Assembly: GCA_977017645.1 (NCBI GenBank)
Contig: OZ360234.1
Span: forward strand, 17,546,001-17,610,000
Origin: Torpedo marmorata
Taxonomy: Eukaryota
DNA length: 64,000 nt
Direction: 5' to 3'
Shown piece after piece: positions 7,397 to 59,890 of this stretch. A program made the position numbers and the translations under genes. How positions within the stretch are numbered: the first letter of the stretch is position 1; each line of letters starts with the position of its first letter. The notes below the pieces were generated by a model, which had not been told where the DNA came from, did no database searches, and saw nothing but the letters and a program-made list of their open reading frames with translations.

Positions 7397-8226
7397 AAAA
7401 TGGCGGTGCTGCCAGAGCCACTGTACCGGCAGCGCTGCCACGGACCCGCGGGGAGCAAGGAGCGGAGATACAGCGCTCCCACGGGGTCCAACCGTCCAGT
7501 CAACTGCCGTCAGCTCCGCACAGGCTTTGAACGGCCCGTTAAAGGAGCCGACTGTAGTTTTATTTAAAATCCCGCAACCGCGGGGTCTGCGCCCAAGATG
7601 GCAACGCCTCTGATCGGCAGCAGCCACGAGGGGTTGCAGACTCCAGGGGAGCGGAGGACTGGCGCAGGGCACCAGAAAACGGGGAGACCATTCCCCGTCT
7701 GAGAAGGAGAAGCAGAGGAGACGACCCATGGGACGGTGACCACGGCAGCGGACCAGTGAGGGGGCTCTGCGGCTGAAAGACCAATGCATGCGGTGGGCTG
7801 CTGGCGACTCGAGGCGAGGAACCCGCGGAGGCTGTGGGCTGCTGGAGACTGCTGTCGGGAGACTCATGCCGAGCTGTGGACTGCTGGAGACTGGGTGAAG
7901 GGGTACCAGGTATTGGAACCAGGATGCAAGGGGGTGCCGAAGGCGCTGAAGGGTTCATGACCGTGTCGGAGGTTCGGATCTGGAGCCCGGGTTGCCAATG
8001 GTTTGAACTGGACTCTGTGGCTGCGGAGGCTGTGGAAGCGCTGGAGGCGAATCTACGGACACTGGGTGACTCTGGGGGGGGACTCTCTTTTGCTTCTCTT
8101 TCTCTGACTGTAAGAGGTGCTTCAGGCAATTTCTGCCGATGGCGAATCTGTCTGTCTTACAGCAGGCAAAAGCAATTTTGTGTAATATGACACTGTTTTA
8201 TTGCATGACAATAAATTGAATCTTGA
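7397..8226 (+). mobile_element. GC-rich non-autonomous retroelement, copy 1 (about 830 bp)
   Basis: Starts aaaatggcggtgctgcc and ends gacaataaattgaatcttgaa. It interrupts CR1 and is colinear with four other copies in the window. Confidence 0.85.
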
Positions 8227-11200
8227 AAATGCTTCCCCACCGAGAGGTCTGTCACCTGACCAGGTTCATTACCCAGTACTAGATCCAGTATGGCCTTTCC
8301 TCTCGTCGGCTTGCCCACATACTGTGTCAGGAATCCTTCTTGTACACACATAACAAATTCTGCCCCATCTATCTCTCTTGCAGTAAAGAGGTGCCCCAAA
8401 TATTTGGGAAGTTGAAGTCTCCAATAACAACCCTGTTATTTTTGCACCTTTCCAAAATCTGTCCACTTATCTGCTCCTCTGTATTCTGAGTGCGATTTGG
8501 GGGCCCATAGACTACTCCCAATATAGTAATCGCTCCCTTCCTGTTTCTGAATCCACCCACACTAACTCAGTAGACAATCCCTCCACAACACTCTCCCTTT
8601 CTGTAGCTGTGATACTATCCTGATTAAAAATGCCACTCCACACCACTCTTTTACCTCCCTTCCTATTCCATTTGAAACATCCAAACCCGTGTCTGCATCA
8701 GCCAATTCTATCCTTGCATCAGCCAAGTCGCTGCAATGGCCAAAACATCGTAATTCCACATACTGATCATCTCCTTTATTCCCAAAGCATCTTGCATTGA
8801 AGTAAACACATTTAAACCCTTCCAACTAACTGTATTTATCCTACTCCACTGCCTGTCCTTCCTCACAATTTCACTATGCATTGTATCAACCTTTTCACCA
8901 TCTGCTCTATTCTCTGCCCTATCAATCGTGTTCCTATCCTCCTGCCAAACTAGTTTAAACCCTCCCCAATAGCTCCAGCAGATTTTGCTGCCAGGATATT
9001 GGTCCCCTTCCAGTTCAGGTGTAACCCATCCTTTTTCTACAGATCATACCTTCCCCAGAAAAGATCCCAATGATCCAGCAACCTGAAACCCTGCACCAAT
9101 TATACAGCCACGCATTCATCTGCCATATCATCCTATTCTTACCCTCACTGGCACCTGGGAGGCAACAAACCATTCGGGTTTCTCTTCGTGCCCATAGAAT
9201 CTCCTGTCTGCCCCTCTATTGAATCCCCCATCACTACCACTCTCCTTTTATCCCTCCTTTCCTTCTGAACCACAGGGTCAGGCTCAGTGCTAGAGACCCG
9301 GTCACTACGGCTTTGCTCTGGTAGGTTGTCCCCCCTCAATACTATCCATAGGAGTATACTTATTATTGAGGGCAACAACCACAGGGGTACCCTGCACTAC
9401 CTGCAGCTCCAGTTCCCTAACACTGTCTGAAAGGAGTTGCAACGATGCATCTCATGCAGATGTAGCTACTAGGGAGATGGCAAGTCTACCAGAATTCCCA
9501 CATCTCACAAGTTGAACACTCCACTAACCTGGTTGCCATTCTGACTATTCTACCTTGGCACTAATACAAGGTCAAAGAATAAATAATAAACTCTCACCAG
9601 TCTTACCTTAGCCACCTCTTCTTGCCGAAACCTCTCTAGCTAAAGCCTCAACTCACCACTCCATCTCACACAATGGCTGCTCTGCTTATACCTCTCACCT
9701 TCTTAAACTGTCCCGCTTCCGCACACTCTCCTTCCAACTCCCGTTCGCTGGAAAAGCGAATGTTCAACGCTAAGAGATGCCCAAATGCCCCACTGACGTA
9801 TCCCCAAGGAGAAAAAAGTCAGTAGTCAACCTTCATATTGTTAATGACTCCAAGATATTGGCATATAACTGATTAGTTGAGGATGCAAAGAATGTGGAAG
9901 TTTTAAAATTCAGATTGTGCACTAAACAAGAAGGACATGGGAGGCTTCAGGGAGAAAAAGAAAACACTCAAGATCTGGAATTCCCTTCATAAACTTTTTC
10001 TTGTCTCCTCCTTTCAGAACGCCATAGCCAAGATGATGAACTGAATGCTGCCTTTGCACTGCAAGATTTTATTACTAAAAAGGATGCAAAAAGGGAAGCA
10101 TTTTCAAAATGTATGGACAGCATCTTCTCACTTCAGTTTTTGGGCTTGTGTACTAAAAGGGAGGATAGGAAAGCAGATGATTAATACCCGTACATAGAGC
10201 CACATAACCAAGTGACTAACTAGTGCCATTGACTGCAGACAGCCAAATAAGCAAAACATCTGGGAACAATCGGTTCAAGCTAAGTCACAGCCTATTTTGC
10301 TGTTCCTTGCAGTACCATCTGTTACAACCAGACAACAAATTGTTTCAAGCTCCAATACAATGACACATTTTTTAGGTGAAATATTTCAGCAGCAGTAAAT
10401 GAAGAAATGCAGTTAGCATTTTAATTAGAGACCATGTCCTACATACCCAATCACGTGCAAAAAAAACAAGATTTAAAGCAGCTGTGTGTTGAAATACAAA
10501 TGTTTCAGTCCATGCCCTTGTTTAGATCCAGCCTTGGCTAAAATATCGAAAATGAAGAGTTAGAGGAAATTCCAAATCCATTCTGAATAACTGACAGGCC
10601 CAAGGCTTGTTTTATCAATGTCACTTAGGACTCGCAGATGGCACATGGTATGTCCAGCAGGACAAGTGTATTTCTGCTAGAGATGATGGGAGTGGCAGAT
10701 GATTGAAGTTAATACATTGGGGAAGCAAAATAGAACCAAAAGCCAAGCAGTTGGTTTATTATACAATAGGCAGCCTGGCAACCTGCCAAATCAGAGGCCA
10801 ATTAAAACTCATGCTAGTGTTCTCCCCTCATTTAAAAATTTCAAACAATCTTTTTGCCCTGAAACTGATATCATAAATTCTCTCTTACTTGGACTTGTTC
10901 AAATAAGACAAGCTTTAGGTTCTATTCAAATACATGCTATCCAGATTCATAGTTAATAACCTGCTGATATACCAACTTCAAATGAATAAATGGTCTAAAT
11001 ATGATGGGGATAAGGTGCCAGCAAGAGCCCACAGTTATACTTCAGGCAAAATAAGGCCAGGTTGTAGAACTTGACATGAAACATTCATGAGTGGACAGAT
11101 TTACACTCTTCATAGAAACAATCATAATACATTTTCTCAAGCAGCAAAGTACACCAAGTCTTGAAGTGCTTAATAAACACTCACATTAAATTGATGCATT

Positions 11201-11538
11201 CATCAACCTGGCCCAAAACAGTGTCAATGGAAACCTTGCTGTAAAATCCCATAAAGGTAGTTGCTCTCACACAATGCTCAGATATAACTTGTCAATATTC
11301 AAGCCTACAGATGCTGCAAAGCAGCCATAAGTTGTGGGCTACCCTGAAATCTGTCATTATTGGTACCCATGAAGAGGCTCTTGGCTTCTCTGAAAGTTTT
11401 ACTTTTATTCAAGGGGGAAAAAAAACAAAAAACAAAACACTCTGTTTAGCAGAAAATCTGGGACCTAAAGAACACTTGGTGGATGAAGAGAACACAGGAG
11501 AATCAGCAGCTCCCTGACAGCTATGACACGTGTGGGTT

Positions 11539-11918
11539 TGTAGCCGACTGCTACGAAGAAACACACACACGCAGTGTGGAAGGTTAAGCTCTCTCCTTTA
11601 TTGAGGCTGGAAATGCTTCTTTTATACAGTTGGAGTTCCCGCCGTTTGGTTGATTGGTTGACATCAGCCGCATGAATGACAATAGCAGGCAGGAACGTTC
11701 TTGCATATGAATACCCTTTTTCCCCAGCCTGGTATTGATCTGTTAGCTGGGCAGCTTGGCCAGCGCCATTTTAGGGCTGCTGGTCTTGTACTGCTCCAGC
11801 TTTCAACCGCGCCAGTTCGCTATGCTAAGGGTCATGTTACAGTGTGTTATGCCGCTGTTTACTACCACGCGCGCCGCGCGATATGCTGGCTCGATCTCCG
11901 CGGTGGCGGGCCACCACA
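11539..11918 (-). mobile_element. solo LTR (Gypsy-type)
   Basis: TG...CA termini, 4-bp TSD ggtt (11535-11538 and 11919-11922), and minus-strand CCAAT, TATAAAA and AATAAA in LTR order. Confidence 0.8.
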
Positions 11919-17489: not shown

Positions 17490-18150
17490 TATTCAGATTT
17501 ATTGTCACAGTACATACATGATATCACATACAACCCTGAGATTCTTTTTTTCTGCAGGCGAGGCAGAATTACCACCTATTGGTAGTGCAAAAAAACTGTA
17601 CACAGCGCATACATGTAAACAAATAAAGAACTGTAAACAGATAATGAATGTAAACAAACTGTCTTGTGCAATAGAGGGAATAAAATAAATCAATAAAGTG
17701 CACAAGAGCCATTAAATGAGTCCCTGATTGAGTTTGTTGTTGAGGAGTCTAATGGTGGAGGAGTAGCAGCTGTTCCTGAACCTGGTGGTACGAGTCTTGT
17801 GGCACCTTTACCTTTTTCCTGATGGCAGCAGCAAGAACAGAGCGTGTGCTGGGTGGTGTGGATCCTTGATTGCTGCTGCTCTCCGATGGCAGCATTCCCT
17901 GTAGCTGTTCTTGATAGTGGGGAGGGTTTTGCCTGTGATGTCCTGGGCTGTTTCCACTACCTATTGCAGGGCTTTACGCTCAGGGGTATTGGTCTCCCCA
18001 TACAAGACCGTGATGCAGCCGGTCAGCACACTTTCCACCACACATCTGTAGAAATTTGCCAGGGTTTCTGGTGTCATACCAAACCTCCGCAAATCCCTGA
18101 GGGAGTAGAGGCGCTGACATGCTTTCTTCATGATGCCATTAGTGTTGGGC
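17490..18150 (-). mobile_element. Rex-Babar LINE 3' fragment
   Basis: KKA.QRLY.LR.LRRFG..FYRC.VESVLT.CIT motif and a tail matching 6113-6432. Confidence 0.85.
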
Positions 18151-19475: not shown

Positions 19476-19496
19476 ACTGACAGAAGGAATTGTGTG

Positions 19497-20950: not shown

Positions 20951-20952
20951 TA

Positions 20953-21577
20953 AAAACACAATGCTGGAGAAACTCAGCAGGTCAAACCGTGTACTTTATA
21001 TAGCAAACATAAAGATACATAACCAACATTTCGAGCTTGAGCTGAAGGGCAAGGTATGAAAAAATGTCACCAGGCGTCCGAACAAAATGGTAGAGGGGAG
21101 GGGCAGGGGGAGGAGCACGGTCCACAAGGCAGGAGGTAATAGGTGGATAAGGGAGGGAGGGCACAGCAGCAAACAGGGGGAGGAGGGATGGCTCTGTGAA
21201 TAGAGAGGGACAGGGGTGGAGAGCAACGGGAAAGAAGACAAGGAGAAAGGGAAGGGAGGGAGAATGGAGAGTAGGCTGGCAGAAACCGGAGAAGTCGATG
21301 TTAATGCCATCCGGTTGGAGAGTGCTCAGACAGAAAATCAAGTGTTGTTCCTCCAATTTACGGGTGGTCTTGGTGGGATAGTACATGAGGCCATGGACAA
21401 ACGTGAGTATGGGAGTGTGACAAAGAATTGAAATGGTTGGCCACTGGGAGGTGTCTGTCATTCGTGCGGACAGAGCGAAGGTGCTCAGCGAAGCAATCCC
21501 CTAGTCTGCGTCCAGTCCCGCCAATGTAGAGAAGGCCACAATGGGAGCACCGGATGCAGTAGATCACTCCTGCGGAT
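20953..21577 (-). mobile_element. Penelope-like element (GIY-YIG end), left arm of an inverted doublet
   Basis: IYCIRCS.CGLLYIG.TGRRL.D.FAEHL, VANHFN and LEEQHLIF..TLQPDGIN. Confidence 0.9.
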
Positions 21578-22506
21578 AATCCTCCGTAATTTCCGCCACC
21601 TACAACATGATCCCACTACCAGACACATCTTCCCCCTCTCCTCCCCTCTCTGCCTTCCATAGGGACTGCTCCCTCTGTGACTCCCTCGTGCACTCATCCC
21701 TCCCTACCAATCACCCCCCCCCGCCCCTCCCGGCACCTTCCCCTGTGGCTGCAGGAAGTGCCACACTTGCATCCACACCTCCTCCCTCACCACAATTCGG
21801 GGCCCCAAACAGACCTTTCAAGTGAAGAAACACTCACTTGTGTATCCACGAGAGTGATCTACTGCATTCGGTGCTCCCGTTGTGGCCTTCTCTACATCGG
21901 AGAGACTGGGCGCAGATTGGGAGATCGCTTCACTGAGCATCTTCACTCTGTCCGCATCAGTGACAGACAATAGACAGGGATCTCTCAGTGGCCAACCATT
22001 TCAGTTCTGCGTCCCACTCCCATACTCACATGTCTGTCCATGGCTTCATGTACTATCCCACCAAGACCACCCGTAAATTGGAGGAACAACACTTGATTTT
22101 CCGTCTGGGCACTCTCCAGCCAGATGGCATTAACATCAACTTCTCCGGTTTCTGCTAACCTACTCTCCTTTCTCCCTCCCTTCCCTTTCCCCTTGTCTTC
22201 TTTCCCTTTGCTCTCCACCCCCTTCCCTCTCCATTCACAGAGCCATCCCTCCTCCCCCTGCTTGCTGTTGTGCCCTCCCACCTTTATCCACCTATTACCT
22301 CCTGCCTTTGGGACCATACTCCTCCCCCCAACCATTTTGTTTGGACGCCTGCCGACATTTTTCCATACCTTGATGAAGGGGCCAAGCCAGAAACGTCGGT
22401 TACGTACCTTTATCTTTGCTATATAAAGTACACTGTTTGACCAGCTGAGTTTCTCCAGCCTTGTGTTTTTATTTCAACCACAGTGTCTGCAGACTTTCGT
22501 GTTTTA
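21575..22506 (+). mobile_element. Penelope-like element (Neptune-type), right arm of an inverted doublet
   Basis: VIYCIRCSRCGLLYIGETGRRLGDRF.EHL, an upstream Cys-rich linker, a pyrimidine-rich UTR and a hammerhead-like tail. Confidence 0.9.
22364..22404 (+). ncRNA. minimal type I hammerhead-ribozyme-like motif (variant core)
   Basis: catacc-ttgatga-aggggccaagcca-gaaacgtc-ggttacg. Confidence 0.55.
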
Positions 22507-22984
22507 CAGCCTGATGCAGGTATTTTTTTGTGGTCCTGGTGATCTAACGCAGAATGGAGGGCCAGTGAGATGGCATTTGCCATTGACTTGTTGTGACATG
22601 GAATGCAGAAACAAGAGGCTGTTTATTCCTTTGAATCTCTTCTGCCATTTTGTTGGCTATTGTCTGATTTGTATACATAAACTCTAATTACTGATATTTG
22701 CTCCATTTCCATTGATATTTTTGCTTAACAAAAATTGGAATGAATAAAGAGTTTATTGTCATAGACTTAAGTACAATGTACAGATTGTTGTTGCAGCTTC
22801 CCAGGTATATAAAACACACTAATAATGATCATAACAATTTCAGCAGGATTACATGGATACTTGGGAATCACTAGGCTTCGATCCCTGCATATGATCTTTC
22901 TTCTCCAATGGGAAAAAGAATATGCATTCTATATCAGTCCAATCCACTCTGCTGATGCAGATGTCCCAACTACAGTAATTTTAA

Positions 22985-23812
22985 AAATGGAAGCGCTGTC
23001 GCTGGTGCGGACCTGGGAGAGCGAGGAGTGGAGACACGGAGCTACTCCGCAGGGTCCTACCGCACAATCCTAATCATGACGGCTCCGTACAGGCTTTAAA
23101 CGGCCTATTAAAGGAGCCGATGGTGTTTTTAAAAAATCCTGCAACCATGGGGTGTGCACCCAAGATGACGGCGCCTGTGCACAACATACCACGAGCGGTT
23201 GCAGACTCCGGGGGGGGGAGTCGTGGACCAATGCAGGGCATCAGAAACGGGGATAACATCCTCTGTTGAGAAGGAGAAGCATAGGAGGCGACCCTACTGG
23301 ACAGTGACCACGGCAGTGAACAGCGAGGAGCTCAGAGGCTGAAGAACCCACACAGGCTACGGGTTTCTGGTGACTTGTGGTCGAAGGACTCACACAGGCT
23401 ACGGATTTCTGGTGACCTGTGATCGAAGGACCTGCACAGGTTGTGGGCTGCTGGAGACTGGCTCATAGGAACCATGTATCGGAACCGGGATTCTAGAAGG
23501 TGCTGAGGGCAAGAAGGTCTCCTGACGGGCCTCGGGTGCGTATCGGAGGTTTGGATGTGGAGTTCAGGTTGCCGATGGTTTGAACGGGAGCCTGTGCAGC
23601 TCCAGAGGCTGCGGGAATGCTGGAGGTGAATCCATGACACTCGCTGTCTCTGAAGGGACTCTCTTTTGCTTCTCTTTCTCCTCTTGTTAGAGGTGTTCGG
23701 GCAATGCTCATGGCGACTCTTTGCTTGCCTTTCGGCAGACAAAAGTTGAAGTATATCATATATATTACATTTTTAATGTATCATTACTTGACAATAAAAG
23801 GAACCTTTGAAT
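22985..23812 (+). mobile_element. GC-rich non-autonomous retroelement, copy 2 (diverged subfamily)
   Basis: Colinear with copy 1; internal 40-bp tandem duplication near 23350-23430; tail gacaataaaaggaacctttgaa. Confidence 0.8.
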
Positions 23813-24956
23813 ATTTTAATTTGGAGATAAGATGGTGCTTTCTTGTGAGTTTTACAAATGTGACTTTTTTAAATTAAAGGGGAACTATGAGCCCTTGCGT
23901 TAATATTCTACGTAACAAGAGATCACCATGTTTCTTTCCCAGCTTTGGATCTGGCTGTTCATTATGGACAATGAAATAATCTGTCGAGTTTAACAAAGGA
24001 AGAATGGTTTCTTGAATGAGATATTAGAGGACCATATGAATACTTAGGCAAGCTATCTTAATCACTACTTTCTGGAGAGGTGGAGAAAAGATGCAGGGAA
24101 TGTGATCCTTCTTGTTGACAAATACAATGTTCATGAGCATGACAGCCCAGCACCATTACTATTTTAGATAAATCATCTTAAAGAATGATAATTCATTTTG
24201 ATGTATTTTAATTGAACAGTACTTACAATTCAAGTTCTGACACACAAAATGTATCTTCAAATGTATCAGTATTATATTGTCAGCATTTGACATAGGAATT
24301 TATCATCTCATTCAATTATTGCGTATGGTATTATTGATTATCATATTATAATATATTTCTGCTGAATACAAACCATTTGAGGAATTCAAGTACTGAGCTG
24401 AACAATGATATTAAAACAATAGCAGCCTACAAAAATATCACCAAAGGATTTTCAATAGATTTAATTTATTTAAGTATTATATGATTGAACGATAACAGTG
24501 ACTGAACAAAGACTATCTTGTATGCATCAGTATTATTCATTCATCACATCACAGACAGAGGTGTAATTGATTCAACACAGATGAATAAACCTTTCATTTC
24601 ATAAGCATTGTTCATTCATTTTGCGTGCATAATGCATCATGTTAAACTTTTGATGACATAAGTTTCCATGCAGCAGAAATTCGATTCTCATGTTATAAAT
24701 TGCAGACATTCATGAAAACTCCTTTAGCTCTCACTTTCTACCTTTTTCTGAAGATGCTGAATGTTTTTCATTTTTAGTTTAAGGGGCACCAGCAAATCGT
24801 GAGGAAGTCACTCTTCTTGTATGATTGGAGAGGGGGTTCTTGATTTTTAGTATGTAGATGGCTCATACTCAAAAACGTTTGCATCGTTTATAAACTCCAA
24901 ACCATCAATTACTTATGCATGTGTTGTCATAAAAATCACACTTTCTGGTAGAACAT

Positions 24957-25733
24957 TTCAAGATTCTTTTATTGTCATGTAATAAAACAGAAAATGTAAT
25001 ATTACACAAAATTTCCTTTAGTCTACCACAAGGCAGACAAAGGTTCACTATCAGCAGAAATTGCCCGACGCCCCTTACAGTCAGAGAGAGTCCCCCCAGA
25101 GTCACTGAGTGTCCATGGATTTGCCTCCAGTGCTCCTGCAGCCTCCGCAGCTACTAAGCCTTCAGTCCAAACCATTGGCAACGCAAGCTCCAAATCCAAA
25201 CCTCTGACATGATCAGGAAGCCCTCAGCGCCCTCTCACATCTCTGTTCCGATACCTGGTACCCCTTCAGCCAGCTCGAGCCAGTCTGGATGCAGCCTGGT
25301 GTGAGTCCCTTGACAGTAGTTGCCAGCAGCCTGTGTGGGTTCCTCACCTCGAGTCACCAACAAACTACTTTCTGTTTGTTCTTCAGCCTCAGAGCCCCTT
25401 GCTGGGTCGTGGTCAAAGTCCCGTGGGGTTGTCTCCTCTGCTTCTCCTTCTCAAAGTGGAGGGTGGTCTCCCTGTTTGCTGGTGCCCGTTCCAGTCCTCT
25501 GCTTCCCCGGAATCTGCAACCACTCGTGGCCGCTGCCAAACCTTGCGGTCGCAGGACTTTAAAATAAAACACCGTTGGCTCCTTTAACAGACCGATTAAA
25601 GCGTGTATGGAGCCGACGACAGTCGGACTAGATGGTCAGACCCCGCGGGGGAGCTCTGTGTCTCCGCTCCCCGCGGGTCCATACCAGTGGCAGCGCTGAC
25701 GTTTACTGCAGCTCCGGCAGCGCCACCATTTTC
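24957..25733 (-). mobile_element. GC-rich non-autonomous retroelement, copy 3
   Basis: Reverse complement starts aaaatggtggcgctgccggag and ends gacaataaaagaatcttgaa. Confidence 0.85.
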
Positions 25734-25924: not shown

Positions 25925-26170
25925 ATGGGTGGCATGGTTGGCGTAGTGGTTAGCACAACGCTGTTACAGCGCCAGCGATCAGGACCGGGGTTCGAATCTG
26001 TAAGGAGTTTGTACGTTCTCCCCGTGTCTGTATGGGTTTTCCCCGGGGGCTCTGGTTTCCTTCCACCATTCGAAACGTACTGGGGGTGTAGGTTAATTTG
26101 GTGTAAATTGGGCGGCATGGACTTGTGGGCCGAAGTGGCCTGTTACCGTGCTGTATGTCTAAATTAAAAT
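25925..26170 (+). mobile_element. tRNA-derived V-domain SINE (HE1-like) with CR1-type tail
   Basis: A-box tggcgtagtggttagc, B-box ggttcgaatc, V-type core gtttgtacgttctccccgtg..ggtttcc, tail gggccgaag.ggcctgtt.ccgtgctgtat. Confidence 0.85.
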
Positions 26171-30892: not shown

Positions 30893-30970
30893 TGGGTAGG
30901 GCTGACAAAAATGAAGGCTAGATGACACACAATTATATACATTGGGAAGCCTGTTTGAAGGGTGGTGTCA

Positions 30971-39511: not shown

Positions 39512-40414
39512 AGAAGTAAAACACGAAAATCTGTAGACACCGTGGTTGAAGTAAAAAACACAAATGCTGGAGAAACTCAGCAGGTCAAACAGTGTCTTTT
39601 ATGTAGCAAAGGTAGAAATACATAACCGACGTTTCAGGCTTGAGCCCTTCATCAAAGTATGAGAAAATGCCGGCAGGCGTCCGAACAAAAGAGTGAGGGG
39701 GGAAGGGGGGTGGCAAAGGCAGGAGATGATAGGTGGAGAAAGGAGGGAGGGGACAGCAGCAAAGAGGGGGAGGAGGGATGGCTGGGTAGGTGGAGAAAAA
39801 CAGGAAGGACAGGTGAGGGGGGAGGGGAAGGGAACGACAAGCAGGTTTAGTGGAAAGCAGAAAAGTCAATGTTAATGCCATCTGGCTGGAGAGTGCCCAG
39901 ACGGAAAATGAGATGTTGTTCCTCCAATTTGCAGGTAGTCTGGGTAGGATAGTACATAAGGCCATGGACAGACATGTGAGTGTGGGAGTATGACCCGGAA
40001 TTGAAATGGTTGGCTACTGGGAGGTCGCTGTTGTTGCGGACGGAGAGGAGGTGGTCAGCAAAGCAGTCTCCCAATCTACGACCGGTCTCTCCAATGTAGA
40101 GAAAGCCACAAAGGGAGCACTGGATGCAGTAAATAAGTTCTCTGGATGTACGTGAAGTGTAGTTTCACTTTGAAGGCTTGTTTGGGGTCCTGGACCGTGG
40201 TGAGGGGGGAGGTGTGGGCGCAGGTGTTGCACCTCCTGCGGGCACAGGGGAAGGTGCCAGGGGTGCGATGGGTGGGGAGGGATGAGTGCATGAGTGAATC
40301 GCGGATGGAGCGGTCCCTACGGAAGGCCGAGAGGGGAGGAGAAGGAAAAATGTGTCTGGTGGTGGGATCCTGTAGTAAGTGCCGGAAATTCCGGCGGATA
40401 ATGTGTTGGATAAT
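39512..40414 (-). mobile_element. Penelope-like element, 5'-truncated
   Basis: GIY-YIG remnants, CARRRCNTC linker, 12-bp TSD atcctagtaaat (39500-39511 and 40415-40426). Confidence 0.9.
39621..39661 (-). ncRNA. minimal hammerhead-ribozyme-like motif (best-preserved copy)
   Basis: Minus strand catact-ttgatga-a-gggc tcaa gcct-gaaacgtc-ggttatg. Confidence 0.6.
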
Positions 40415-40491
40415 ATCCTAGTAAATCTTCTCTGCACTCTTTTAAATCTTACTGATATCCTTTCAATAATGACACTAAGTGATTTGAATTA

Positions 40492-41130
40492 GGAATTTCC
40501 GGCACTTACTACAGGATCCTACCACCAGACACATTTTTCCTTCTCCTCCCCTCTCAGCCTTCGTAGGGACCGCTCCTTCCGCGATTTCCTCATGCACTCA
40601 TCCCTCCCCACCCATCGCACCCCCGTCACCTTCCCCTGTGCCCGCAGAAGGTGCAACACGCGACCACACCTCCTCCCTCACCACAGTCCGGGGCCCCAAA
40701 CAGGCCTTTCAAGTGAAGCAACACTTCACTTGTACATCCAGAGAACTTATTTACTGCATCCGGTGCTCCCTTTGTGGCATTCTCTACATCAGAGAGACCG
40801 GTCGTAGATTGGGAGATCGCTTCGCTGAGCACCTCCTCTCCGTCCGCAACAACAGCGACCTCCCAGTAGACAACCATTTCAATTCCGAGTCACGCTCACG
40901 TGTCTGTCCATGGCCTTATGTACTATCCCACCCAAACCACCCGCAAATTGGAGGAACATCATCTTATTTTCCATCTGGGCACTCTCCAGCCAGATGGCAT
41001 TAACATTGACTTTTCTGCCTTCCACTAAACCTGCTTGACTTTTCCTTCCCCTCCCCCCTTACCTGTCCTTCCAGTTTGTTTCCAGCCATCCCCCCTCCTC
41101 CTCTTTGCTGCTGTCCCCTCCCTCCTTTCT
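40492..41130 (+). mobile_element. Penelope-like element fragment
   Basis: LIYCIRCSLCGILYI.ETGRRLGDRFAEHL; inverted relative to 39512-40414. Confidence 0.88.
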
Positions 41131-43619: not shown

Positions 43620-45800
43620 TCAGCCCTTGGTGTCTCTGCTCCCAGTTTCTGAGGTTGACATGAACTGAACCTTCAGGAGGGTGAATCTTGGAAAATCCTG
43701 CGGCCCAGGTGTACCTGGCCGTGTCATTAAAACCCATGTGAACCAACTGGCTGAAGGTTTTGCAGACAATTTCAATGTCTTGCTCCAACAGTCAGAGGTC
43801 CCTGCCTGCTTCAAAACTTCTGGAGTTCAAGAAGAGCAAGGTGATCTGCCTCAACAACTATTGGTGGCACTTCTATCTTCTGTGCTGAAGTGCTTTGGCT
43901 ATGGAGCAGATGAACTTCTATCTCAGGAAGGATCTAGAGTTCAAAAGTAAATCATGAAAATCTGTGGACACCGTGGTTGAAGTAAAAAACACAAAATGCT
44001 GGAGAAGCTCAGCAGGTCAAACAGTGTCCTTAATGGAGCAGAGCAAAGGTAGAAATACATAACCAACATTTCGGGCCTGAGCCCTTCAACAAGGTATGAG
44101 AGAATGCCGGCAGGCATCCGAACAAAAGGGGAGGGGGGGTGCAAAGGCAGGAGAAGATAGGTGGATGAGGGGACAGCAGCAATGAGGGGGAGGAGGGATG
44201 GCTGGGTGGGTAAGGAGGAAGGGAGGGGAAAAACTGGAAAGACAGGAAAGGGGGAGTGGAAAGAAAAGGCGAGCAAGTTTAGTAGAAGGCAGAGAAATCA
44301 ATGTAAATGCCATTTGGCTGGAGAGTGCCCAGACGGAAGATAAGGTGTTGTTCCTCCAATCTGCGGGTGGTCAGGGTAGAATAGTGCAAAAGGCCATGGA
44401 CAGACATGTGAGTCTGGGAGTGTGACCCAGAATTGAAATGGTTGGCTACTGGGAGGTCGCTGTGGTTGCGGACGGAGAGGAGGTGCTCGGCAAAGCGATC
44501 TCCCAATCTGCGACCGGTCTCTCCGATGTAGAGAACGCCACAAAGGGAGCACCGGATGCAGTAAATGAGTCCTGCGGATATACAAGTGAAGTTTTGCTTC
44601 ACTTGAAAGGCCTGTTTGGGGCCCCGGACCATGGTGAGGGAGGAGGTGTGGGCGCAAGTGTTGCACCTCCTGCGGCCACAGGGGAAGGTGCCGGGGGGGG
44701 ATAGGTGGGGATGGATGAGTGAACAAGGGAATCACGGAGGGAGCGGTACCTGCGGAAGGCCGAGGGGAGGAGAAGGAAAAATGTGTCTGGTGGTGGGATC
44801 CTGTAGTAAGTGCCGGAAATTCCGGTGGATAATGTGTTGAATGCGGAGGCTGGTGGGGTGGTAGGTGAGGATACCTATCGTCACAACAGATGACAGATGC
44901 CATCTCGCTGGTCTTGCACTCTAGGCATTAGATCACCTTGGACCACAAGAAAACCTACGTCAGGCTTTTGTTTATTGACTGCAACCCGGCATTCAACAGC
45001 TGTGTAACAAGTTCAGCTCTAACACAATCTATAAAGTTGTTGATGACACCACTGTTTTTGATTGAGTAATTGGAAATGAGTCAGAATACAGGCTGGAGAT
45101 GAGAATCTGGTTGGGTAGTGCCAGAACAAATCTTGCTCTCAATGTCACTGACCAAGGATCTTATTGTCGATTTTAGGAAGGAGGGGCAGAGGGACCACCT
45201 GTCTGGATTGATGGGACAGGGGTGGAGAGGGTTAGTACTTCAAGTTCCTGGGAGTATATATTTCAGAAGATCTTTCCAGGAGCCAGCACAGAAACTGTGG
45301 AAAAAGTCACACCAACGTCTATAATTTCTAAGAAGTCTGAGGAGATTTGGCATGTCATTGAATACTCTTATCAAACATCCACAGGTGTACTGTGGAAAGT
45401 ATATGATTGGTTGCTTGACAGTAATTTGAGTGCCCAGGAACACAGAAGGATGCAGAAGGTAGCAAACATAGGCTGGCCCATCACGGACTCTGATGTGAGG
45501 TGCTGTCTCAAGAAAGCAGCCAGTCATAAAGGACCCCATCACCCTGGTCACAACCTTTTCTCACAGCTACCTTCAGATAAGCCTGAAGACCAATACCTCC
45601 AGGTTCAAGAAGTTTTTTTCCAACTGCTATCGCGATATTGTAACGCTATTATAACGCTTATCATGGACTGCTCTGACATCACAGGGCTGTCTACACTATT
45701 GAAAGGTACTTTTTTCTTGCACTATGGTAACTGAACATTTATTATCTATATTTTGTATTTTTTCACTGTTCTTGTTTGGCTGAAGCTAGCAGGAATTTGG
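43620..45800 (+). mobile_element. decayed Rex-Babar LINE split by a Penelope insertion
   Basis: GP.VPGRV.K..NQLA..F.D.FN at 43681-43940; continues after 44875 with [21 protein letters not shown] and HPGHNLFS.LPS. Confidence 0.7.
43945..44872 (-). mobile_element. Penelope-like element, 5'-truncated
   Basis: Open GIY-YIG domain at 44279-44632 (LIYCIRCSLCGVLYIGETGRRLGDRFAEHL..LEEQHLIFRLGTLQPNGI); hammerhead-like tail at 44058-44098. Confidence 0.9.
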
Positions 45801-46377
45801 TGCAAATAATGTATGTGCTCCCTTTTTCACATTTATATAACTTTCTAGCAACCAAGAGCTTTAATAAAACATGAATTTGAAATAATTAGGAAAATCAATC
45901 CAACAGCCAATGACAAACACCATTTTCAAACTTACAGCAATGGTCTGTGCTAAATTATAAAATGGCAAGAATGTCCCAGGATTGAATTTAAGGCAGGGCT
46001 GACGTGGACCATCTCAGTCTCTTTCATGTCAGGAAATAAAAGCAGCTTTTGATGATTTTTTTTATTGGACTGGGAATTGGAAAGTGCTCGTAGATCCAGC
46101 AAATTGTTCATGGCAGAGATCATGTAACATTATGTGAAGGAAAGGTTGTCTTGAACTGTGATGTTAATGCCATGCATGGATAAAGGTTTATCATCCATTT
46201 CTGTGATTGGTGGTTTTGCACAGCATTCAATTACTGCCTGCATTGGTACTGTATCTGCTTGTACCAGTTTTCTGGGATCACAACATGGATGCAGCTTTTT
46301 TAATGAGTGGGACACTGATAATTAAAAAAAAAAAACACTTTGTGACTTAATTCAATAGTACTTGTTTGTGTTTCAGC

Positions 46378-47142
46378 ATGATGAGTGAGTATTGGACTCC
46401 AATTGCGAAGCAGTATAACCCACTAAAAGCTGGAAGCATTGATGGCACAGATGAAGAGCCCCACGACCGAGCTGTCTCAAGGGCAATTGCAGCCACATAC
46501 AGACCGAATAAGGGTGTTATAGGAGATCCCCACCTGACCCTCTTTGTTGCCAGGTTGAATCCTCAGACATCTGAAGAAAAATTAAAAGATACTTTCTCAC
46601 GATTTGGAGACATCCGTAGACTGAGGCTTGTGCGGGACATTGTCACTGGATTTTCCAAATGCTATGGTTTCATCGAATACAAGGACGAGCGTTCATTATT
46701 AAAGGCACATCGGGATAGCAATAAATTAGTGGTGGACCAAAATGAAATATTTGTGGATTTTGAATTGGAACGGTCTTTGAAAGGCTGGGTTCCACGGAGA
46801 TTTGGTGGAGGTTTAGGAGGTAAAAAGGAATCTGGCCAGCTGCGGTTTGGTGGGCGGGATCGTCCGTTTAGGAAGCCTTTCAGCCTGCCAGCGTTGAAAG
46901 CAGAATTGTACACTGAAGGACCAGCTGACAAACTGGATAGAACAAGGGATAACTGGCAGTGGGAAAGAGGTCGAGATCGGGACAGGCGAAGAGAGGAGAG
47001 GGGTGAGGAAAGAGAAAAGCATGGTGGAGACAGGGAGCGATACAGAAGTCGGGAAAGGGATCATAAACGCCAAAGAGATGAAGATCGATATAAAGATGAA
47101 GACAGACACCAACGTAGAGAGAAACATAAAACACGACGGTAG
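46378..47142 (+). CDS. SNRNP35: U11/U12 small nuclear ribonucleoprotein 35 kDa protein
   Basis: W.PIAK.Y.PLKAGSIDGTDE.PHDRA, RRM (TLFVARLN..RDIVTGFSKCYGFIEY), GWVPRRFGGGLGGKKESGQLRFGGRDRPFRKP and an RD/RE-rich tail. Acceptor tttcag ends at 46376, just before the ATG. Confidence 0.97.
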   Translation: MMSEYWTPIAKQYNPLKAGSIDGTDEEPHDRAVSRAIAATYRPNKGVIGDPHLTLFVARLNPQTSEEKLKDTFSRFGDIRRLRLVRDIVTGFSKCYGFIEYKDERSLLKAHRDSNKLVVDQNEIFVDFELERSLKGWVPRRFGGGLGGKKESGQLRFGGRDRPFRKPFSLPALKAELYTEGPADKLDRTRDNWQWERGRDRDRRREERGEEREKHGGDRERYRSRERDHKRQRDEDRYKDEDRHQRREKHKTRR

Positions 47143-53129: not shown

Positions 53130-54840
53130 AGTTATTAAAAAGTTCTGATAAGAGTAAATTAATGAGGGCAGGGCAGTAGACATCATCTACATGGACTTTA
53201 GCAATGCCTTTGACAGGGTCTCGCATGATAATCTAGTCTGGATCGCTTGGGATCCAGGGCGAGTCAGTCAATTATATACAGAATTGACAGAGGATGGTGA
53301 ATGGTAGGGCCCTGGACAGTGCTGTAGAATAGGGAGGCTTGTGGGTACAGGGGCATAGTTCCATGAAATAGGTGGCCAGGGTGGTGTAAGTGCTTAGCAT
53401 GCTTGCCTTCATCAGTTAGGGCATTGGAGTACAGGAACAGGGAGGTCATGTAACAACTGTACAAGATGGTTAGTCAACACTTGGGAGTTTTGAGCACAGT
53501 TCTGGTCACCCAACTTTAGGAAAGTTACCATTAAGTTGGAAAAGGTGCAGTGAAGAGTTATGAGAACGTTACATGGACTGATAGGCTGGAATTATGTCTG
53601 GAATATTTCTCCCTGGAGTGTAGGAGGCCAAGGGGGCGGGGAAGATTTAGAATTATTTTAAAGTCATGAGGGACATAGAAAACGGTAAATAGTCGTTTTT
53701 TCCCAGTGGAAGGGAATCTATAACTAGAGGGCATTGGTTTAAGACGAGGGGAAATATTTTAAAAAGACCCAAAGGGCATCTTTTTCTACATAGAGGGTTG
53801 TGGGAATATGAAACGAGCTGCCAGAGGAAGTGGTAGAGGTGGGTACAATTGTAATATTGATAAGACAGGTACATGGCGGCGCTGCCGGAGCCGCTGTAGC
53901 GTCAGCGCTTCCGCTGGTGCGGACCCGCGGGGAGCGGAGATGCAGCGCTCCCGTGGGGTCCAGCCACCCAGTCGACTGCCGTTGGCTCCGCACGGGTTTT
54001 GAACGGCCCATTGAGGGAGTCGACGGTGGTTTTTATTTGAGATCCCGCGACCGCGGGGTCTGCACCCAAGATGGCGGCGCCTATTAATCGGCAGCAGCCA
54101 CGAGGGGCTGCAGACTCCGGGGAAGCGGAGGACTTGAGCAGGGCACCCGAGGACGAGAAGATCACGCCCCCCCCTGTCTGAGAAGGGGAAGCGGAGGAGA
54201 CAACCCACGCGATGGTGACCACGGTGGCGGACCAGTGAGGGGCTCTGAGGCTGAAGGACCAGTGCATGCGGTGGGCTGCTGGCAACTTGAGGCGAGGAAC
54301 CCGCGGAACATGTGGGCTGCTGGAGACTGCTGTCGGGAGACTCGCGCCGGGCTGCGGACTGCTGGAGACTGACTCGAACTGGCTGGAGGGGTACCACGTA
54401 TCGGAACCGGGATGCGAGGGGGTACCGAGGGCGCCGAATGGTTCCTGACCATGTCAGAGGTTCGGATCTGGAGCTCGGGTTGCCAATGGTTTGGACTGGA
54501 CTCTGTGTGGCTGCGGAGGCTGCGGAAGCACTGGAGGCGAATCTACGGACACTCGGTGACTCTGCGGGGACTCTCTTTTGCTTCTCTTTCTCTGACTAAG
54601 TCTGACTAAGAAATGTAAGAGGCGCTTAGGCAATTTCTGCCAGTGGCGAATCTGTCTGCCTTGCAGCAGGCAAAAAGAAATTTCATGTAATATGACACTG
54701 TTTTATTACTATGATAATAAATTGAATCTTGAATAGGAAAGGTTTAGAGGGATATTGGCCGAATGCAGACAAATGGGATTAGCCTGGTAGGTATGGACAG
54801 GGTTGGCCGAAGAGCCTGTTTCTGTGCTGTAGAAATCTAT
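53130..54840 (+). mobile_element. decayed CR1 3' half split by GC-rich element copy 4
   Basis: VDIIYMDFSNAFD.VSH, TRGH.FK, CR1 tail ggccgaagagcctgtttctgtgctgta. Confidence 0.8.
53873..54733 (+). mobile_element. GC-rich non-autonomous retroelement, copy 4
   Basis: Starts atggcggcgctgccggagccgc and ends aataaattgaatcttgaa; CR1 sequence resumes on both sides. Confidence 0.88.
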
Positions 54841-56241: not shown

Positions 56242-56727
56242 CTGAAATGGAATAATGAAACAGGAATCTTAAAGATGCGAGACAACATGAATCAATGGAA
56301 AAAAATAACAATTGGATGCGTTGAATTAGGCAGGGCTGAGTAAATGAAAATCTCTTTTTGTGGCACACACAAAACATAGAGAAGAGTTCTATTTACTCCC
56401 AAACAATATTTTACCTGAACCACATTGGATTATTCTTTCTTCCACAGTAGGAATAATTTGGGAATAAAAATTCAAGATGTTGAACAATTAAATGCCCTGG
56501 CTGCTCTCCAAACCCCATGTGAATTTATATACCCACATTCCTTTTTTATTGGATCCTAAATCCACTATGCTTACAAATAAACCATAAATATCAATTTTTA
56601 TTATCTGCATAGGCACAAGGAGAGTACATTCTTTACAAGCAGAATCAGTGATATCACTGCCAATCAAAAGATCATTTTCACAGAATGTTCCACATAAAAG
56701 TCAGTGTTTCAGTCTCAAGATACTTAC

Positions 56728-56936
56728 AAAGAATTCCAACACAGATGTAAATTATTAATCCAGAACTTTTCGTGGGTTTTTTTCCTTTTGGGTAGAATAG
56801 TAACTTTAACGACACCAAAGCTTTATCTTCAGCCTTATAACCTTCACTGTTGATTTGAGTTTCCAGGTTGGTTTTGCTTTCTCCAAATGGAGTCATTTCA
56901 TACAAATCACATTTCATAAGCTGAGGAGGCTGATAT
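56728..56936 (-). CDS. SLC7A3: CAT-3-like exon
   Basis: RYQPPQL...PTKSSGLIIYICVGIL; acceptor cccag, donor gtaagt. Confidence 0.9.
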
Positions 56937-57300
56937 CTGGGAATAGAATAAAGCCAAAATTAAACCTTTGTGCCGCCACCTAGAAGTTCCTAAGTTACAC
57001 ACTATTCTGATCTGTACATATATTGCTGTTGTTACATCTTTGCTGGGTGTAAATAATGGGGCTTCTAATCCAACTGCCAGCAGAGTAGCGTTGCCACATG
57101 TACTGCAGTAATTCAAGATGGCATTGGCATCTTCACCAGGGCAATCAATGAAGGCAATCAATGCTGATCTTCATCCCGTCAATGAATAATAACACAATGT
57201 TAATTGTGTCTAAAGGATTCTTTTCGTATATCAGCCACATGTTGCTGTAACATGGCAATAAGTTGTTAGCTTTTGTCTGAAGAAGAACCACTTCACTCAC

Positions 57301-57403
57301 CTGAGGATAAGAACACAAACTGCCACCAAGGAATAAGCAAGTAATGTACCAATAGACATGAGGTCAACTAGAACATCCAGGTCGAAGAGCAAAGCCATGA
57401 TAG
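57301..57403 (-). CDS. SLC7A3: CAT-3-like exon
   Basis: [35 protein letters not shown]; acceptor catcag, donor gtgagt. Confidence 0.93.
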
Positions 57404-57708
57404 CTGATGAACAAAACAAAAACAAATGTGACTACACACACACACTATCAACATCTACACATTCGTGGACACACTGCGATCGATTCATTTATTTGGTCAT
57501 TCCAACCTCTGAAACAAAATTATATTTATTAAATGTTTTGATATGCTAAAATAGCATCATGATGTATCTTTCCTAAAGGAGATTGAGTTATTACAAGTAT
57601 TCTGCAACTTTAAAAAAAAAAGTATTATCTAATTGTTCATTCAAGAAAAGTTACAGGAATTTCATATGAATCAGACCACTCAGTGGAACACCACAAACAT
57701 GACACAGT

Positions 57709-57940
57709 AAAGGTTCCATTATTGTCACGTAATACTACATTTAGAATGTAACATACATGAAATTCTTTAATTTTTGTCTACCATAAGGCAGACAAGAGAG
57801 TCGTTACTTTGTCCAGCGCCCCTCACAGAAACCTACAGCACCTGGTGTTCCTAGGCGGTCTCCCCTCCAAGTACTGACCAGTCCTGTGCCTGCTTAGCTT
57901 CCGAGATCAGACAATCCCAGTCGTATTCAGGCTATTGGTG
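57709..57940 (-). mobile_element. 5S rRNA-headed SINE (SINE3-type)
   Basis: 57831-57935 is a degenerate reverse complement of 5S rRNA (cctacagcacc.ggt.ttcc.aggcggtctccc.tccaagtact.accag..ctgcttagcttccgagatcagac). It is fused to a 120-bp tail shared with the GC-rich element. Confidence 0.85.
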
Positions 57941-57942
57941 CT

Positions 57943-58600
57943 GTTTCCGATTAACCGAAATTCCGAATATCCGAAAGTTTTTTCGGGTGAGACATGACAT
58001 CACAATTTGAAAAAAAATTTACCCACCGTGCTCAGGTGGGGCTACAGGGAATCAGTTTTACAAAGGAGACATTTGTCCACAGGTTACACATTGACAAAAA
58101 GGATAGCACTGATTATTTATTTATAAATTGTAATTTTTTTGCCGAGTTACTGCAACTTTGTGATAAATTGCATTGTGGCGCTGCTGCTCTCTCCCTGCTC
58201 GCCCGCCCGAGCCGCGCTCTCCCCGCTCACCTGCCCGAGCCGCGCTCTCTCCCCGCTCGCCTGAGCCGCTCCCTCTGTCAAATATCCTTTCAGCTGGGTC
58301 GCTGAAATTCTGCTGGAGGACAATCCCTGTGCAATCTCCTACCACTTACAGGTGAAGTGAGACCTCTGGCTCCCGGTAAGGAGCGGGGACCTCGGGCTCC
58401 CGGGCAGGATTGGCGACGGTGGTGGGGAGGTGTCGGGGATCGGCAACTGCGTGGGGAGGTGTCGGGGATCGGCGACAACTGATACAAGTATTCTCCTGAT
58501 GCTACTGGGCTGCTGTGGAGAAAATTCTCGAATATCCTAAAAATCCGCTTAACAGATATAGGTCCGGTCCCAAGCATTTCGGATAATCGGAAACGTACTG
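57943..58600. mobile_element. non-autonomous Tc1/mariner (Tigger-like) DNA transposon
   Basis: TIRs gtttccgattaaccgaaa / tttcggataatcggaaacgtactg followed by TA. The left terminus (cagta at about 57705) appears to be separated by the 5S SINE. Confidence 0.72.
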
Positions 58601-58742
58601 TACAAGCTTTCTTCATTCAACTACCATACATTTGTATTTTTATTCACTGAACAGGGAATGAATTAAAATTGACCAACTACCAGTAGAGTGGTGTTTCACT
58701 GTAAAATGATTCCTTAGGATGCCTATTTTAAACTCTACTCAC

Positions 58743-58882
58743 CAGCCACAGCACCAGAAACAATGGTTGCATGCACTGGCGTCTTGGTTTTTTTGTGTGT
58801 GTTCCCCAGGAAGCGGAAGAGCAATCCATCCTCAGCCATTGCGTATATGACACGTGGCATAGGAAACATAGAGCCCAGTAAA
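58743..58882 (-). CDS. SLC7A3: CAT-3-like exon
   Basis: [47 protein letters not shown]; acceptor aatctag, donor gtgagt. Confidence 0.95.
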
Positions 58883-59049
58883 CTAGATTAGAGAAAGGGA
58901 CAATGGTAGAGATCAGGACCACTCAGCGTTGAGCCTACTTCATTTCTTTATTTGTGTGCTCTTGTTACACAAAAAGTTCTGTATTACTGTGTTTCATTTG
59001 GTTGCAGATACACAAGATTCTGGAACTGGAGCTACTGGCATTATTTGGA

Positions 59050-59890
59050 GATTCAAGATTCAATTTATTGTCATAGTAATAAGACAGTGTCATATTCCAT
59101 GAAATTTCTTTTTGCCTGCTGCAAGGCAGGCAGATTCTCCACCGGCAGAAATTGCCTAAGCGCCTCTAACATTCCTTACAGTCAGAGAAAGAGAAGCAAA
59201 AGAGAGTCCCCCCCAGAGTCACCAAGTGTCCATAGATTCGCCTCCAGCGCTTCCGCAGCCACACAGAGTCCAGTCCAAACCATCGGCATCCCGAGCTCCA
59301 GATCTGAACCTCCAACACGGTCAGGTCGTCCTCGGCACCCCCTCGCATCCCAGTTCCGATACCTGGTACTCCTCCAGCCAGTTCGAGCCAGCCTCCAGCA
59401 GTCTGCAGCCCGACGTGACTCCCCCGACAGAAGTCTCCAGCAGCCCACAGTCTCCGCGGGTTCCTCGCCTCGAGTCGCCAGCAGCCCGTCGCATGCACTG
59501 GTCCTTCAGCCTCAGATCCCCTCACCGGTCAGCTGCCGTGGTCACCGTCCCGTGGGTCGTCTCCTCCGCTTCTCCTTCTCAGACGTGGGTGATCTTCCCA
59601 TCCTCTGGTGCCCTGCTCCAGTCCTCCGCTTCCCCAGAATCTGCAGCCCCTCGTGGCTGCTGCCGGTTAAAAGGCGCTGCCATCTTGGGCGCAGACCCCG
59701 CGGTCACGGGATCTTAAATAAAACCACCGTCGGCTCCTTTAACGGGCCGTTCAAAGCCTGTGCGGAACCGACGGCAGTCGACTGGGTGGCTGGACCCCGC
59801 GGGAGCGCTGTATCTCCGCTCCCACGCTCCCCGCGGGTCCGCACCAGCGGCAGCGCTGCCGCTACAGCGGCTCCGGCAGCGCCGCCATTC
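59050..59890 (-). mobile_element. GC-rich non-autonomous retroelement, copy 5
   Basis: Reverse complement starts aatggcggcgctgccggagccgc and ends aataaattgaatcttgaatc; ttggag on both flanks. Confidence 0.88.

Follow-up and report, generated by a model that had tools for sequence, protein, structure and literature searches.

The window examined here, a 64,000-nt stretch of the Torpedo marmorata genome, carries five copies of an ≈850-nt repeat that lacks a shared long ORF and is represented by ≈40 to 55 thousand young copies in the 6.2-Gb genome. The repeat is a non-autonomous non-LTR retroposon, with dispersed copies, a fixed 3′ end, and no RT ORF, and it likely borrows the enzymes of Rex-Babar LINEs for its mobilization. 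We consider it probable that the family is a Pol II element mobilized in this way. Its general type is known already, and the 850-nt form with Rex-Babar-like ends would be a variant for which we found no description.

Five copies of an ORF-less repeat

The initial annotation reported five copies in the window, and alignment confirmed the place and strand of every one. They represent five subfamilies, one copy each, with pairwise identities of 66 to 87% over 720 to 870 nt:

7397..8227, + strand: copy 7397, full length, subfamily 4, 96% to its consensus
22984..23813, + strand: copy 22985, oldest subfamily, 89% to its consensus, with an ≈26-nt deletion after the first ATGG
24957..25732, − strand: copy 24957, old subfamily 2, 90% to its consensus, with internal deletions
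53873..54733, + strand: copy 53873, full length, young subfamily 5, 95% to its consensus
59051..59890, − strand: copy 59050, full length, young subfamily 3, 97% to its consensus

The earlier description of the copies as nearly all full length holds for 7397, 53873, and 59050 but not for the two with deletions. Similarly, the proposed common ending, gacaataaa..gaatcttgaa, has four pattern matches in the window against 0.03 expected, but copy 22985 has an older GGAACCTTTGAA-type tail that is closest to the tail of a 5S SINE. The density of the element in the window is 78 copies/Mb, compared with 10 to 33/Mb in four flank sets retrieved for unrelated purposes; a fifth flank set, taken from Rex-B loci and containing repeated loci, has 57 copies/Mb. 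The absence of a consistent ORF was borne out, as only an 8-codon ORF at the first ATG is common to all subfamily consensuses. A Pfam search with the longest antisense frame gave no match, and comparison with 120 Rex-type proteins found no protein similarity (best E 0.03). With none found by protein comparison, a coding remnant in the element was rejected.

Mode of retroposition

All 30 loci sampled through the young tail proved to be the 850-nt element with an intact 3′ end. Nineteen are full length, one is full length with an internal duplication, and 10 have scattered 5′ truncation points. The 30 loci sampled through the old tail likewise all finish in the element tail. The simple-repeat 3′ tail varies in length between copies, and the element has neither an LTR nor a terminal inverted repeat layout. 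Target duplications are not consistent (at least 8 nt in 2 of 43 loci versus 16 of 212 controls). Because the 3′ ends are intact, the 5′ truncation is variable, and the target duplications are not consistent, we classify the element as a non-LTR retroposon; 5′ truncation and tail form rule out an LTR element or a DNA transposon. A shorter ancestor that began at an internal second motif was rejected as well, since truncation points do not cluster there.

Rex-Babar-type LINEs in the window and the search for a parent

Two LINE 3′ ends in the window are relevant to the choice of helper. They belong to families that we take to be Rex-Babar from a single RT ORF with PF09004 and the form of the tail:

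17491..18150, − strand: 3′ end of LINE family B, Rex-Babar-type, the candidate helper, whose tail layout comes closest to that of the element among those found
61964..62945, − strand: 3′ end of LINE family A, Rex-Babar-type, the most abundant family and an alternative helper

The element lies within Rex-B at two loci and Rex-B lies within the element at one, and these nested insertions in both directions place the two in the same era. Rex-A likewise lacks consistent target duplications, with none of eight copies above 4 nt. No LINE among the sampled loci shares the head or tail of the element at the sequence level, and each of the 30 loci sampled through the head continues into the body of the element rather than into a LINE. 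Samples of tails, heads, near-full-length Rex copies, and Rex 3′ ends gave no parent LINE, nor did the loose ends of public contigs on the shared tail. These samples are the first 30 to 100 places of each search, so rare LINE families can be missed. The initial suggestion of a non-autonomous element mobilized by a LINE is supported. The helper would be Rex-Babar family B or a close relative, and both ends of the element may descend from a Rex-Babar lineage that has since disappeared or become rare.

A 3′ module shared with two SINEs

The last ≈125 nt of the element comprise three predicted hairpins followed by an ACAATAA motif and a repeat tail, as in a Rex-Babar 3′ UTR. The same tail is borne by a 5S-headed SINE and a tRNA-headed SINE, and that of the oldest subfamily is identical to the 5S SINE tail at 105 of 130 positions:

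54617..54733, + strand: 3′ module of copy 53873, with three predicted hairpins, an A-rich linker, AATAAA, and (ATCTTGA)n; the two SINEs have a homologous tail
57706..57948, − strand: 5S rRNA-headed SINE, with its 5S head (57948-57830) joined directly to the same 3′ module (57828-57706)

The consensus tails of the element, the SINE, and Rex-B all fold into a hairpin, a second hairpin, an A-rich linker, a long hairpin, and CAATAA. Pairing in the tail stems is 94.7%, and in 9 of 16 pairs the only variation is by one-sided changes that keep the pair; covariation is not above column shuffles, 69 of 500 of which reach the score. A covariance model built from element and SINE tails only matches the 3′ end, on the right strand, in 12 of 13 Rex-B copies (14 to 22 bits), each match to a Rex tail being individually nonsignificant (E 0.14 to 3.8) and driven in part by a shared TGACAATAA. 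The model matches none of eight Rex-A tails, and five of its nine weak matches in the window are Rex-Babar ends. Against the element tail profile, the 3′ ends of 63 Rex copies, drawn from about seven families, scored at most 11 bits, and none was a high-identity partner. A comparison of tail profiles with Rex UTR clusters was uninformative, as most sequences fell below the reporting floor. A pairwise tail test yielded z scores of up to 2.4 for one Rex-B UTR and a single 5.1 for a minor A-like family. The tail layout and the weak but correctly placed matches on Rex-B support the Rex-Babar-like tail proposed at the outset.

If this likeness were convergent, the helper could instead be another LINE of the CR1 group, L2 or CR1. 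CR1-group elements commonly have short tandem tails and 3′ stem-loops and lack target duplications, which counts in favor of such a helper. The described shark SINEs, moreover, pair with CR1/L2-type LINEs (PMC3747384; PMC5499810). We nevertheless regard this alternative as improbable: the top non-self matches of both the tail profile and the covariance model are Rex-Babar ends, and the surveyed Rex families share TGACAATAAA ahead of the repeat.

A TISU/YY1-type start common to the element and LINEs

The first 50 nt of the element are 90% invariant across six subfamily consensuses, and no other part of the family is as conserved. The features of this region are best seen in copy 53873:

53873..54130, + strand: head of copy 53873, with a TISU/YY1-type start, an 8-codon ORF, and then four predicted hairpins
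54065..54079, + strand: second TISU/YY1-type motif, within the fourth predicted hairpin

The AAGATGGC core at the start of the element and of the LINEs is a TISU element; in mammalian cells, such elements bind YY1 and drive transcription as well as translation from short leaders (PMC2518114). As judged from the motif, the YY1-type start is not unique to the 850-nt element; it is common to three Rex-Babar-type LINE families. Families A, B, and E also start at A(A/G)ATGGCG, and that ATG opens their ORF. Among the copies listed, the LINE 5′ end lies 2 to 4 nt before the ORF-opening ATGG(C/T)G in 17 of 22 for A, 8 of 9 for B, and 3 of 3 for E, with conservation falling to background just upstream. 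The element starts at the same 2- to 4-nt offset from its ATG. Sharing with these families at the 5′ end is limited to the 9- to 14-nt start motif; alignment of four heads to LINEs beyond the motif, using the old consensus, did not rise above shuffles. The idea of a captured LINE 5′ UTR has to be recast, as the Rex-Babar-type LINEs here almost lack a 5′ UTR and have only the start motif in common with the element. A second motif ≈200 nt into the element, also noted originally, is exact in one of the five copies and is deleted from 24957, where an ≈28-nt deletion removes AAGATGG.

YY1 may bind at the start motif, and its TISU/YY1 role in the fish element and LINEs is putative. Because ≈4% of human promoters contain TISU (PMC2518114), the motif is no proof of LINE origin. 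Accordingly, the head and body could derive from a cellular Pol II transcript, namely the 5′ portion of a housekeeping mRNA or lncRNA with a TISU, that became fused to a Rex-Babar tail and was mobilized as proposed above; such an element would resemble the GC-rich-headed bird SINEs. There is no LINE homology past the start motif, and the tail is a portable module that also took 5S and tRNA heads, both consistent with this origin. However, TISU genes have a median leader of 12 nt, unlike the 2- to 4-nt offset that the element has in common with the three LINE families, and the second motif of subfamily 1 agrees with the family E start at 19 of 20 nt, a match that is suggestive only. No single-copy source gene emerged either, although the searches could not have picked one out from tens of thousands of element copies. 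We view a cellular head as possible, though unlikely.

Folding of the head

The hairpins initially described in the head were recovered with zero to two mismatches in the three young copies 7397, 53873, and 59050, zero to three in 24957, and one to five in 22985. A structured 5′ part is further supported by the folding of nt 1 to 300, with z from −3 to −7 versus ≈0 in the element body. Among 89 pairs compared across five consensuses, two have two-sided changes, four have one-sided changes, and 10 are broken; folding computed on decayed copies gives a different head structure. This folding, the sharp 5′ end, and the few indels among copies in the head would all suit a self-cleaving ribozyme like those of R2, RTE, and Ingi, which would excise the element from read-through transcripts. 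There is also overlap between the LINE clades known to yield such derivatives and those in which 5′ ribozymes occur (PMC5786205). Rfam, however, returned no ribozyme match, whether at the gathering threshold or at E ≤ 5, apart from four unrelated subthreshold matches, and the ribozyme head suggested earlier finds no support there. The predicted stems are simple serial hairpins, and the shared start motif explains the sharp 5′ start. Self-made HDV-like and hammerhead patterns, run without a positive control and hence weak as evidence, gave no match in the element. A ribozyme head seems decidedly improbable.

Transcription and CpG decay

All six subfamily consensuses contain runs of T4+ near nt 170 and 690 to 710, which make Pol III less likely. 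We found no A box or B box in them, and an AATAAA signal is present in the element. These features make Pol II, suggested earlier, more likely than Pol III as the polymerase that would transcribe the element. No RNA data set was listed among those containing the element. The statement that the head is not of tRNA, 5S, or 7SL origin also stands, with no Rfam match in the element and no tRNA found. A Pol III SINE whose head came from an unrecognized small RNA would account for a GC-rich, structured head and for a tail that serves two Pol III-type SINEs. The 850-nt length, together with the T-runs, the missing boxes, and the negative tRNA and Rfam results, renders it highly improbable.

CpG transitions in the element occur at 3 to 5 times the rate at other C/G sites (3 to 4.7 times), equally in head and body. 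Because CpGs decay faster in both parts alike, the copies are not protected CpG islands, and the suggestion that the element spreads such islands was rejected.

Relationship to known elements

Our literature search found no description of the 850-nt family or of a Rex-Babar counterpart, and none of LINEs that start at a TISU; either could be contained in subscription papers, Repbase Reports, or supplements. Among the closest known systems are bipartite non-autonomous LINEs that lack an ORF, namely Bov-A, RTE-N, RIME, NARTc, and R2 SIDE (PMC5786205). Like the element, these have no ORF, LINE-type 5′ and 3′ ends, and presumed Pol II transcription, and have given their 3′ part to tRNA- and 5S-headed SINEs (PMC5786205). 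The survey lists them solely in RTE, Ingi, Vingi, and R2, whereas the 850-nt element ends in Rex-Babar-like fashion and is longer than the RTE-N examples in the tables of that survey, 195 to 470 nt (PMC5786205). The bipartite class consists of internal-deletion derivatives; with no parent LINE among those sampled, such an origin is putative for the element. ORF-less LINE parasites with LINE-type ends would be extended to Rex1/Babar, which is absent from the four producing clades of the 2018 Repbase survey.

Bird SINEs also combine a GC-rich head that is not tRNA, 5S, or 7SL with a LINE-derived tail and a putative promoter, but they carry bipartite RTE sequence, in contrast to the TISU/YY1 start shared with a candidate helper and the Rex-Babar-like tail seen here (PMC5786205, PMC7245038). 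Rex1/Babar LINEs have a conserved 3′ UTR followed by an oligonucleotide repeat, and rays are among the taxa richest in Rex1 (PMC6274825, PMC13343379). Those of this genome share the start motif and tail layout of the element, which differs in having no EN/RT ORF and no coding remnant.

In human L1, YY1 fixes the start site (PMC11602158). The AAGATGGC core lies at the extreme 5′ end in the TISU/L1 YY1 site and in the element alike (PMC2518114, PMC11602158), although the L1 site is in a long 5′ UTR, whereas the ATG opens the ORF in the LINEs here and an 8-codon ORF in the element (PMC11602158). A LINE that starts at a TISU/YY1 motif with an ORF-opening ATG makes the transcription and translation of an ORF1-less Rex1 directly testable. 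A more speculative and rather doubtful extension is that Rex-Babar LINEs are retrotransposons without a leader, in which a single TISU/YY1 motif serves as both promoter and start codon, with the element a parasite that keeps the motif, the 8-codon ORF, and the hairpin head to load ribosomes and catch the helper protein, a Pol II analogue of Alu ribosome targeting. If so, no bipartite-type non-autonomous element would have been known before from the Rex1 clade, and the element would likely have supplied the tail from which two SINE families arose.

A precedent for pairing with Rex1 is the sea anemone SINE2-5_NV, which is matched to the Rex1-24_NV LINE through its 3′ end (PMC3747384). Its head is of tRNA type (PMC3747384). 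The elements here that correspond to it are the 5S and tRNA sister SINEs and not the 850-nt element. One 125-nt tail with three heads (GC-rich, 5S, and tRNA) in a single genome clearly illustrates how SINEs can be born through the exchange of heads.

Copy number and insertion pattern

Self-comparison of the window recovered the ≈850-nt element at the five places proposed in the initial annotation, with pairwise likeness of 66–87%:

7397-8227, plus strand, element copy (young)
22984-23813, plus strand, element copy (old; copy 22985)
24957-25732, minus strand, element copy (old)
53873-54733, plus strand, element copy (young)
59051-59890, minus strand, element copy (young; copy 59050)

In the three young copies the motifs and stems described match exactly or almost exactly; the match is poorer in the two old copies. 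In copy 22985, ≈26 nt are missing directly 3' of the first ATGG, and the second motif is absent from copy 24957. Clustering of 84 near-full-length copies gave five subfamilies with 3–13.5% non-CpG divergence, and 30 further loci yielded a sixth, older consensus; no two of the five window copies fall in the same subfamily.

Within the 6.2-Gb genome we counted 19,232 exact 29-nt young tails and 10,723 exact 19-nt heads (reversed controls, 0 for both). Cross-counting (14/30 and 6/30) gives a rough estimate of 41–54 thousand young copies, and density was 10–33 matches per Mb in four flank sets of only 2–3 matches each. Words of the element are present in twenty public runs (12 studies, ten organisms), and its length is spanned by run contigs in three other organisms, so that it is common to relatives. 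The element is real and abundant, and it is probably undescribed: we found no description in the openly readable literature. At locus L200, a young copy sits in the tail of an old one, leaving two tails in series.

All 30 young-tail loci taken in genome order are elements with an intact 3' end; 19 are full length, one has an internal duplication and 10 are cut at scattered 5' points. Likewise, 30 of 30 old-tail loci end in the old tail, and tail repeat length varies among copies. With this insertion pattern, observed directly, the element is a retroposon. Target duplications of at least 8 nt show no excess (2 of 43 copies versus 16 of 212 in the shuffled control). As first proposed, a consistent reading frame is lacking: no long ORF common to the consensuses was found, and comparison with 120 Rex-type proteins gave no match better than E 0.03.

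A 3' module shared with SINEs and resembling Rex-Babar-type LINE tails

The element profile also matches window positions 57828-57706, directly behind a 5S match at 57948-57830. SINEs with this tail are as follows:

57706-57948, minus strand, young 5S rRNA-headed SINE (element profile and 5S match; also at L331-L360)
L353 1324-1397, tRNA-headed SINE (called Lys)
L395 1431-1504, tRNA-headed SINE (called Thr)
L421, L422, L424 and L426, tRNA-headed SINE

The 5S-headed SINE is ≈245 nt long, has 18,825 exact tail matches and ends in (ACCTTT)n; the tRNA-headed SINE, seen at six loci, has the same tail and junction. Element and SINE have the last ≈125 nt in common, and the 5S SINE tail is identical to that of the oldest element subfamily at 105 of 130 positions. 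At L250 (3236-3425), the terminal hairpin of the element is amplified to a short tandem array just 5' of the normal tail.

The consensus tails of the element, the SINE and Rex-B, an autonomous LINE family of this genome, adopt a common fold in which a pair of short hairpins is followed by an A-rich linker, one long hairpin and CAATAA. Across 17 distinct tails from element and SINE copies, pairing in the last two stems is 94.7%, and 9 of 16 pairs vary only by pair-keeping changes; this does not exceed column shuffles. A covariance model built from element and SINE tails matches 12 of 13 Rex-B copies, each at the 3' end, and none of 8 copies of the related Rex-A; in the window, five of nine weak matches are Rex A or B ends. 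Every match is individually weak; the evidence lies in their placement. In layout, the element tail is of Rex-Babar type. Two loci have an element nested in Rex-B and one has the reverse arrangement, indicating that both were active in the same period.

The initial annotation had the element mobilized by a LINE. The tail and insertion pattern support this, but the search for an autonomous LINE sharing both ends found no parent. Scored against the element tail, 63 additional Rex 3' ends (about seven families) all stayed at or below 11 bits, and no direct donor was found among the Rex 3' ends surveyed. Rex-B or a close relative is our candidate helper; that another CR1-group LINE serves instead seems improbable. 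In how it would spread, the element resembles the bipartite ORF-less LINE derivatives; as no parent LINE was found, it is a candidate member of that group. In the part of Kojima 2018 (PMC5786205) concerned with them, such derivatives are listed for RTE, Ingi, Vingi and R2 only.

A start signature shared with LINEs

Full-length LINEs from the same genome were used for 5' comparison. Family A (≈3.27 kb) has a single 1039-aa ORF with RT and PF09004; from ORF layout and tail form, we take it to be Rex-Babar. A single ORF without ORF1 agrees with the layout outlined in the relevant portion of PMC13343379. Families A, B and E start 2–4 nt 5' of ATGG(C/T)G, whose ATG opens the ORF, in 17/22, 8/9 and 3/3 copies, respectively; about 10,500 Rex-Babar-type copies extend to the endonuclease start. 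Short-leader loci are the following:

L062, L063, L065, L067, L074, family A
L239, L241, L243, family B
L258, L264, L284, family E

The YY1 start noted earlier, present at the element 5' end, is thus also the signature with which these LINEs begin. Its core, AAGATGGC, is TISU; according to PMC2518114, this sequence is bound by YY1 in mammalian cells, is required for transcription and directs translation from very short leaders. The first ATG of the element opens eight codons, with TAA as the stop in the older subfamilies and TAG in the younger, and nt 1-50 are 90% invariant across six consensuses. Comparison of four heads found no homology to LINE 5' ends beyond the start motif, and all 30 head-sampled loci run on into the element, with no LINE among them. 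Fusion of a cellular TISU-bearing 5' end to the tail is an unlikely alternative, though one with some claim; the shared ends are observed, and we favor descent from a lost Rex lineage.

All six consensuses have T-runs of at least 4 near nt 170 and 700 and none has A/B boxes, which argues against Pol III and makes a Pol III SINE barely credible. These features favor the Pol II promoter proposed at the outset, and transcription would be by Pol II. We consider it reasonably probable that a master copy is transcribed by Pol II from its TISU/YY1 motif, that the RNA ends past AATAAA and that its hairpin tail is recognized and bound by a Rex-Babar protein, which mobilizes the RNA; the protein would prime reverse transcription at a nick, leaving full-length or 5'-cut copies.

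Folding of the head and CpG content

Folding z ranges from −2.6 to −6.7 over nt 1-300 and from −3.4 to −4.0 at the 3' end, whereas the body gives values around zero or above it. The head also folds well on its reverse strand. Gaps occupy 9 of 275 head columns versus 109 of 495 in the body. The stems of the consecutive hairpins reported earlier are real at the sequence level, with a putative function. Covariation is sparse: 73 of 89 head pairs show no change, 4 have one-sided changes, 2 have two-sided changes (each C-G to T-A) and 10 are broken. Variable columns favor loops, as they do in the unstructured body, and when 24 decayed copies were folded one by one, another structure resulted. The suggestion that this folded head is a ribozyme now appears quite improbable: at the gathering threshold Rfam gave no match within the element, and at E≤5 the four loci carrying copies gave only four sub-threshold matches, all unrelated.

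Young copies are CpG-rich (o/e 0.82–0.86 versus 0.54 for the window), but CpG transitions run at 3–4.7 times the rate of other C/G sites, with no difference between head and body. This indicates CpGs apparently methylated in the germline and decaying rather than the protected islands implied by the idea that the element spreads CpG-island-like sequence.

Other repeats and genes

Several further features were seen:

20951-22507, 39514-41130 and 43945-44842, one repeat family whose members are paired in direct or inverted orientation
25948-26169 and 59907-60129, a different short repeat, present twice, just beyond element 5' ends (215 and 16 nt off)
26276-35533, two tandem gag-pol units (≈77% likeness) carrying direct repeats of ≈260 nt that are almost identical
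46351-47142, plus strand, single-exon ORF with an RRM
61964-64000, internally inverted family A LINE (3' part minus strand, upstream RT part plus strand)

The gag-pol units look like a Gypsy-type LTR retrotransposon pair. The short repeat, abundant in related runs, looks tRNA-derived by eye. Translation of the paired family presumably resembles the GIY-YIG endonuclease of Penelope-like elements, and the ORF, we assume, resembles the U11/U12 snRNP 35 kDa protein. At L254, a family A copy carries a greatly expanded in-frame tandem repeat in its N-terminal coding region.
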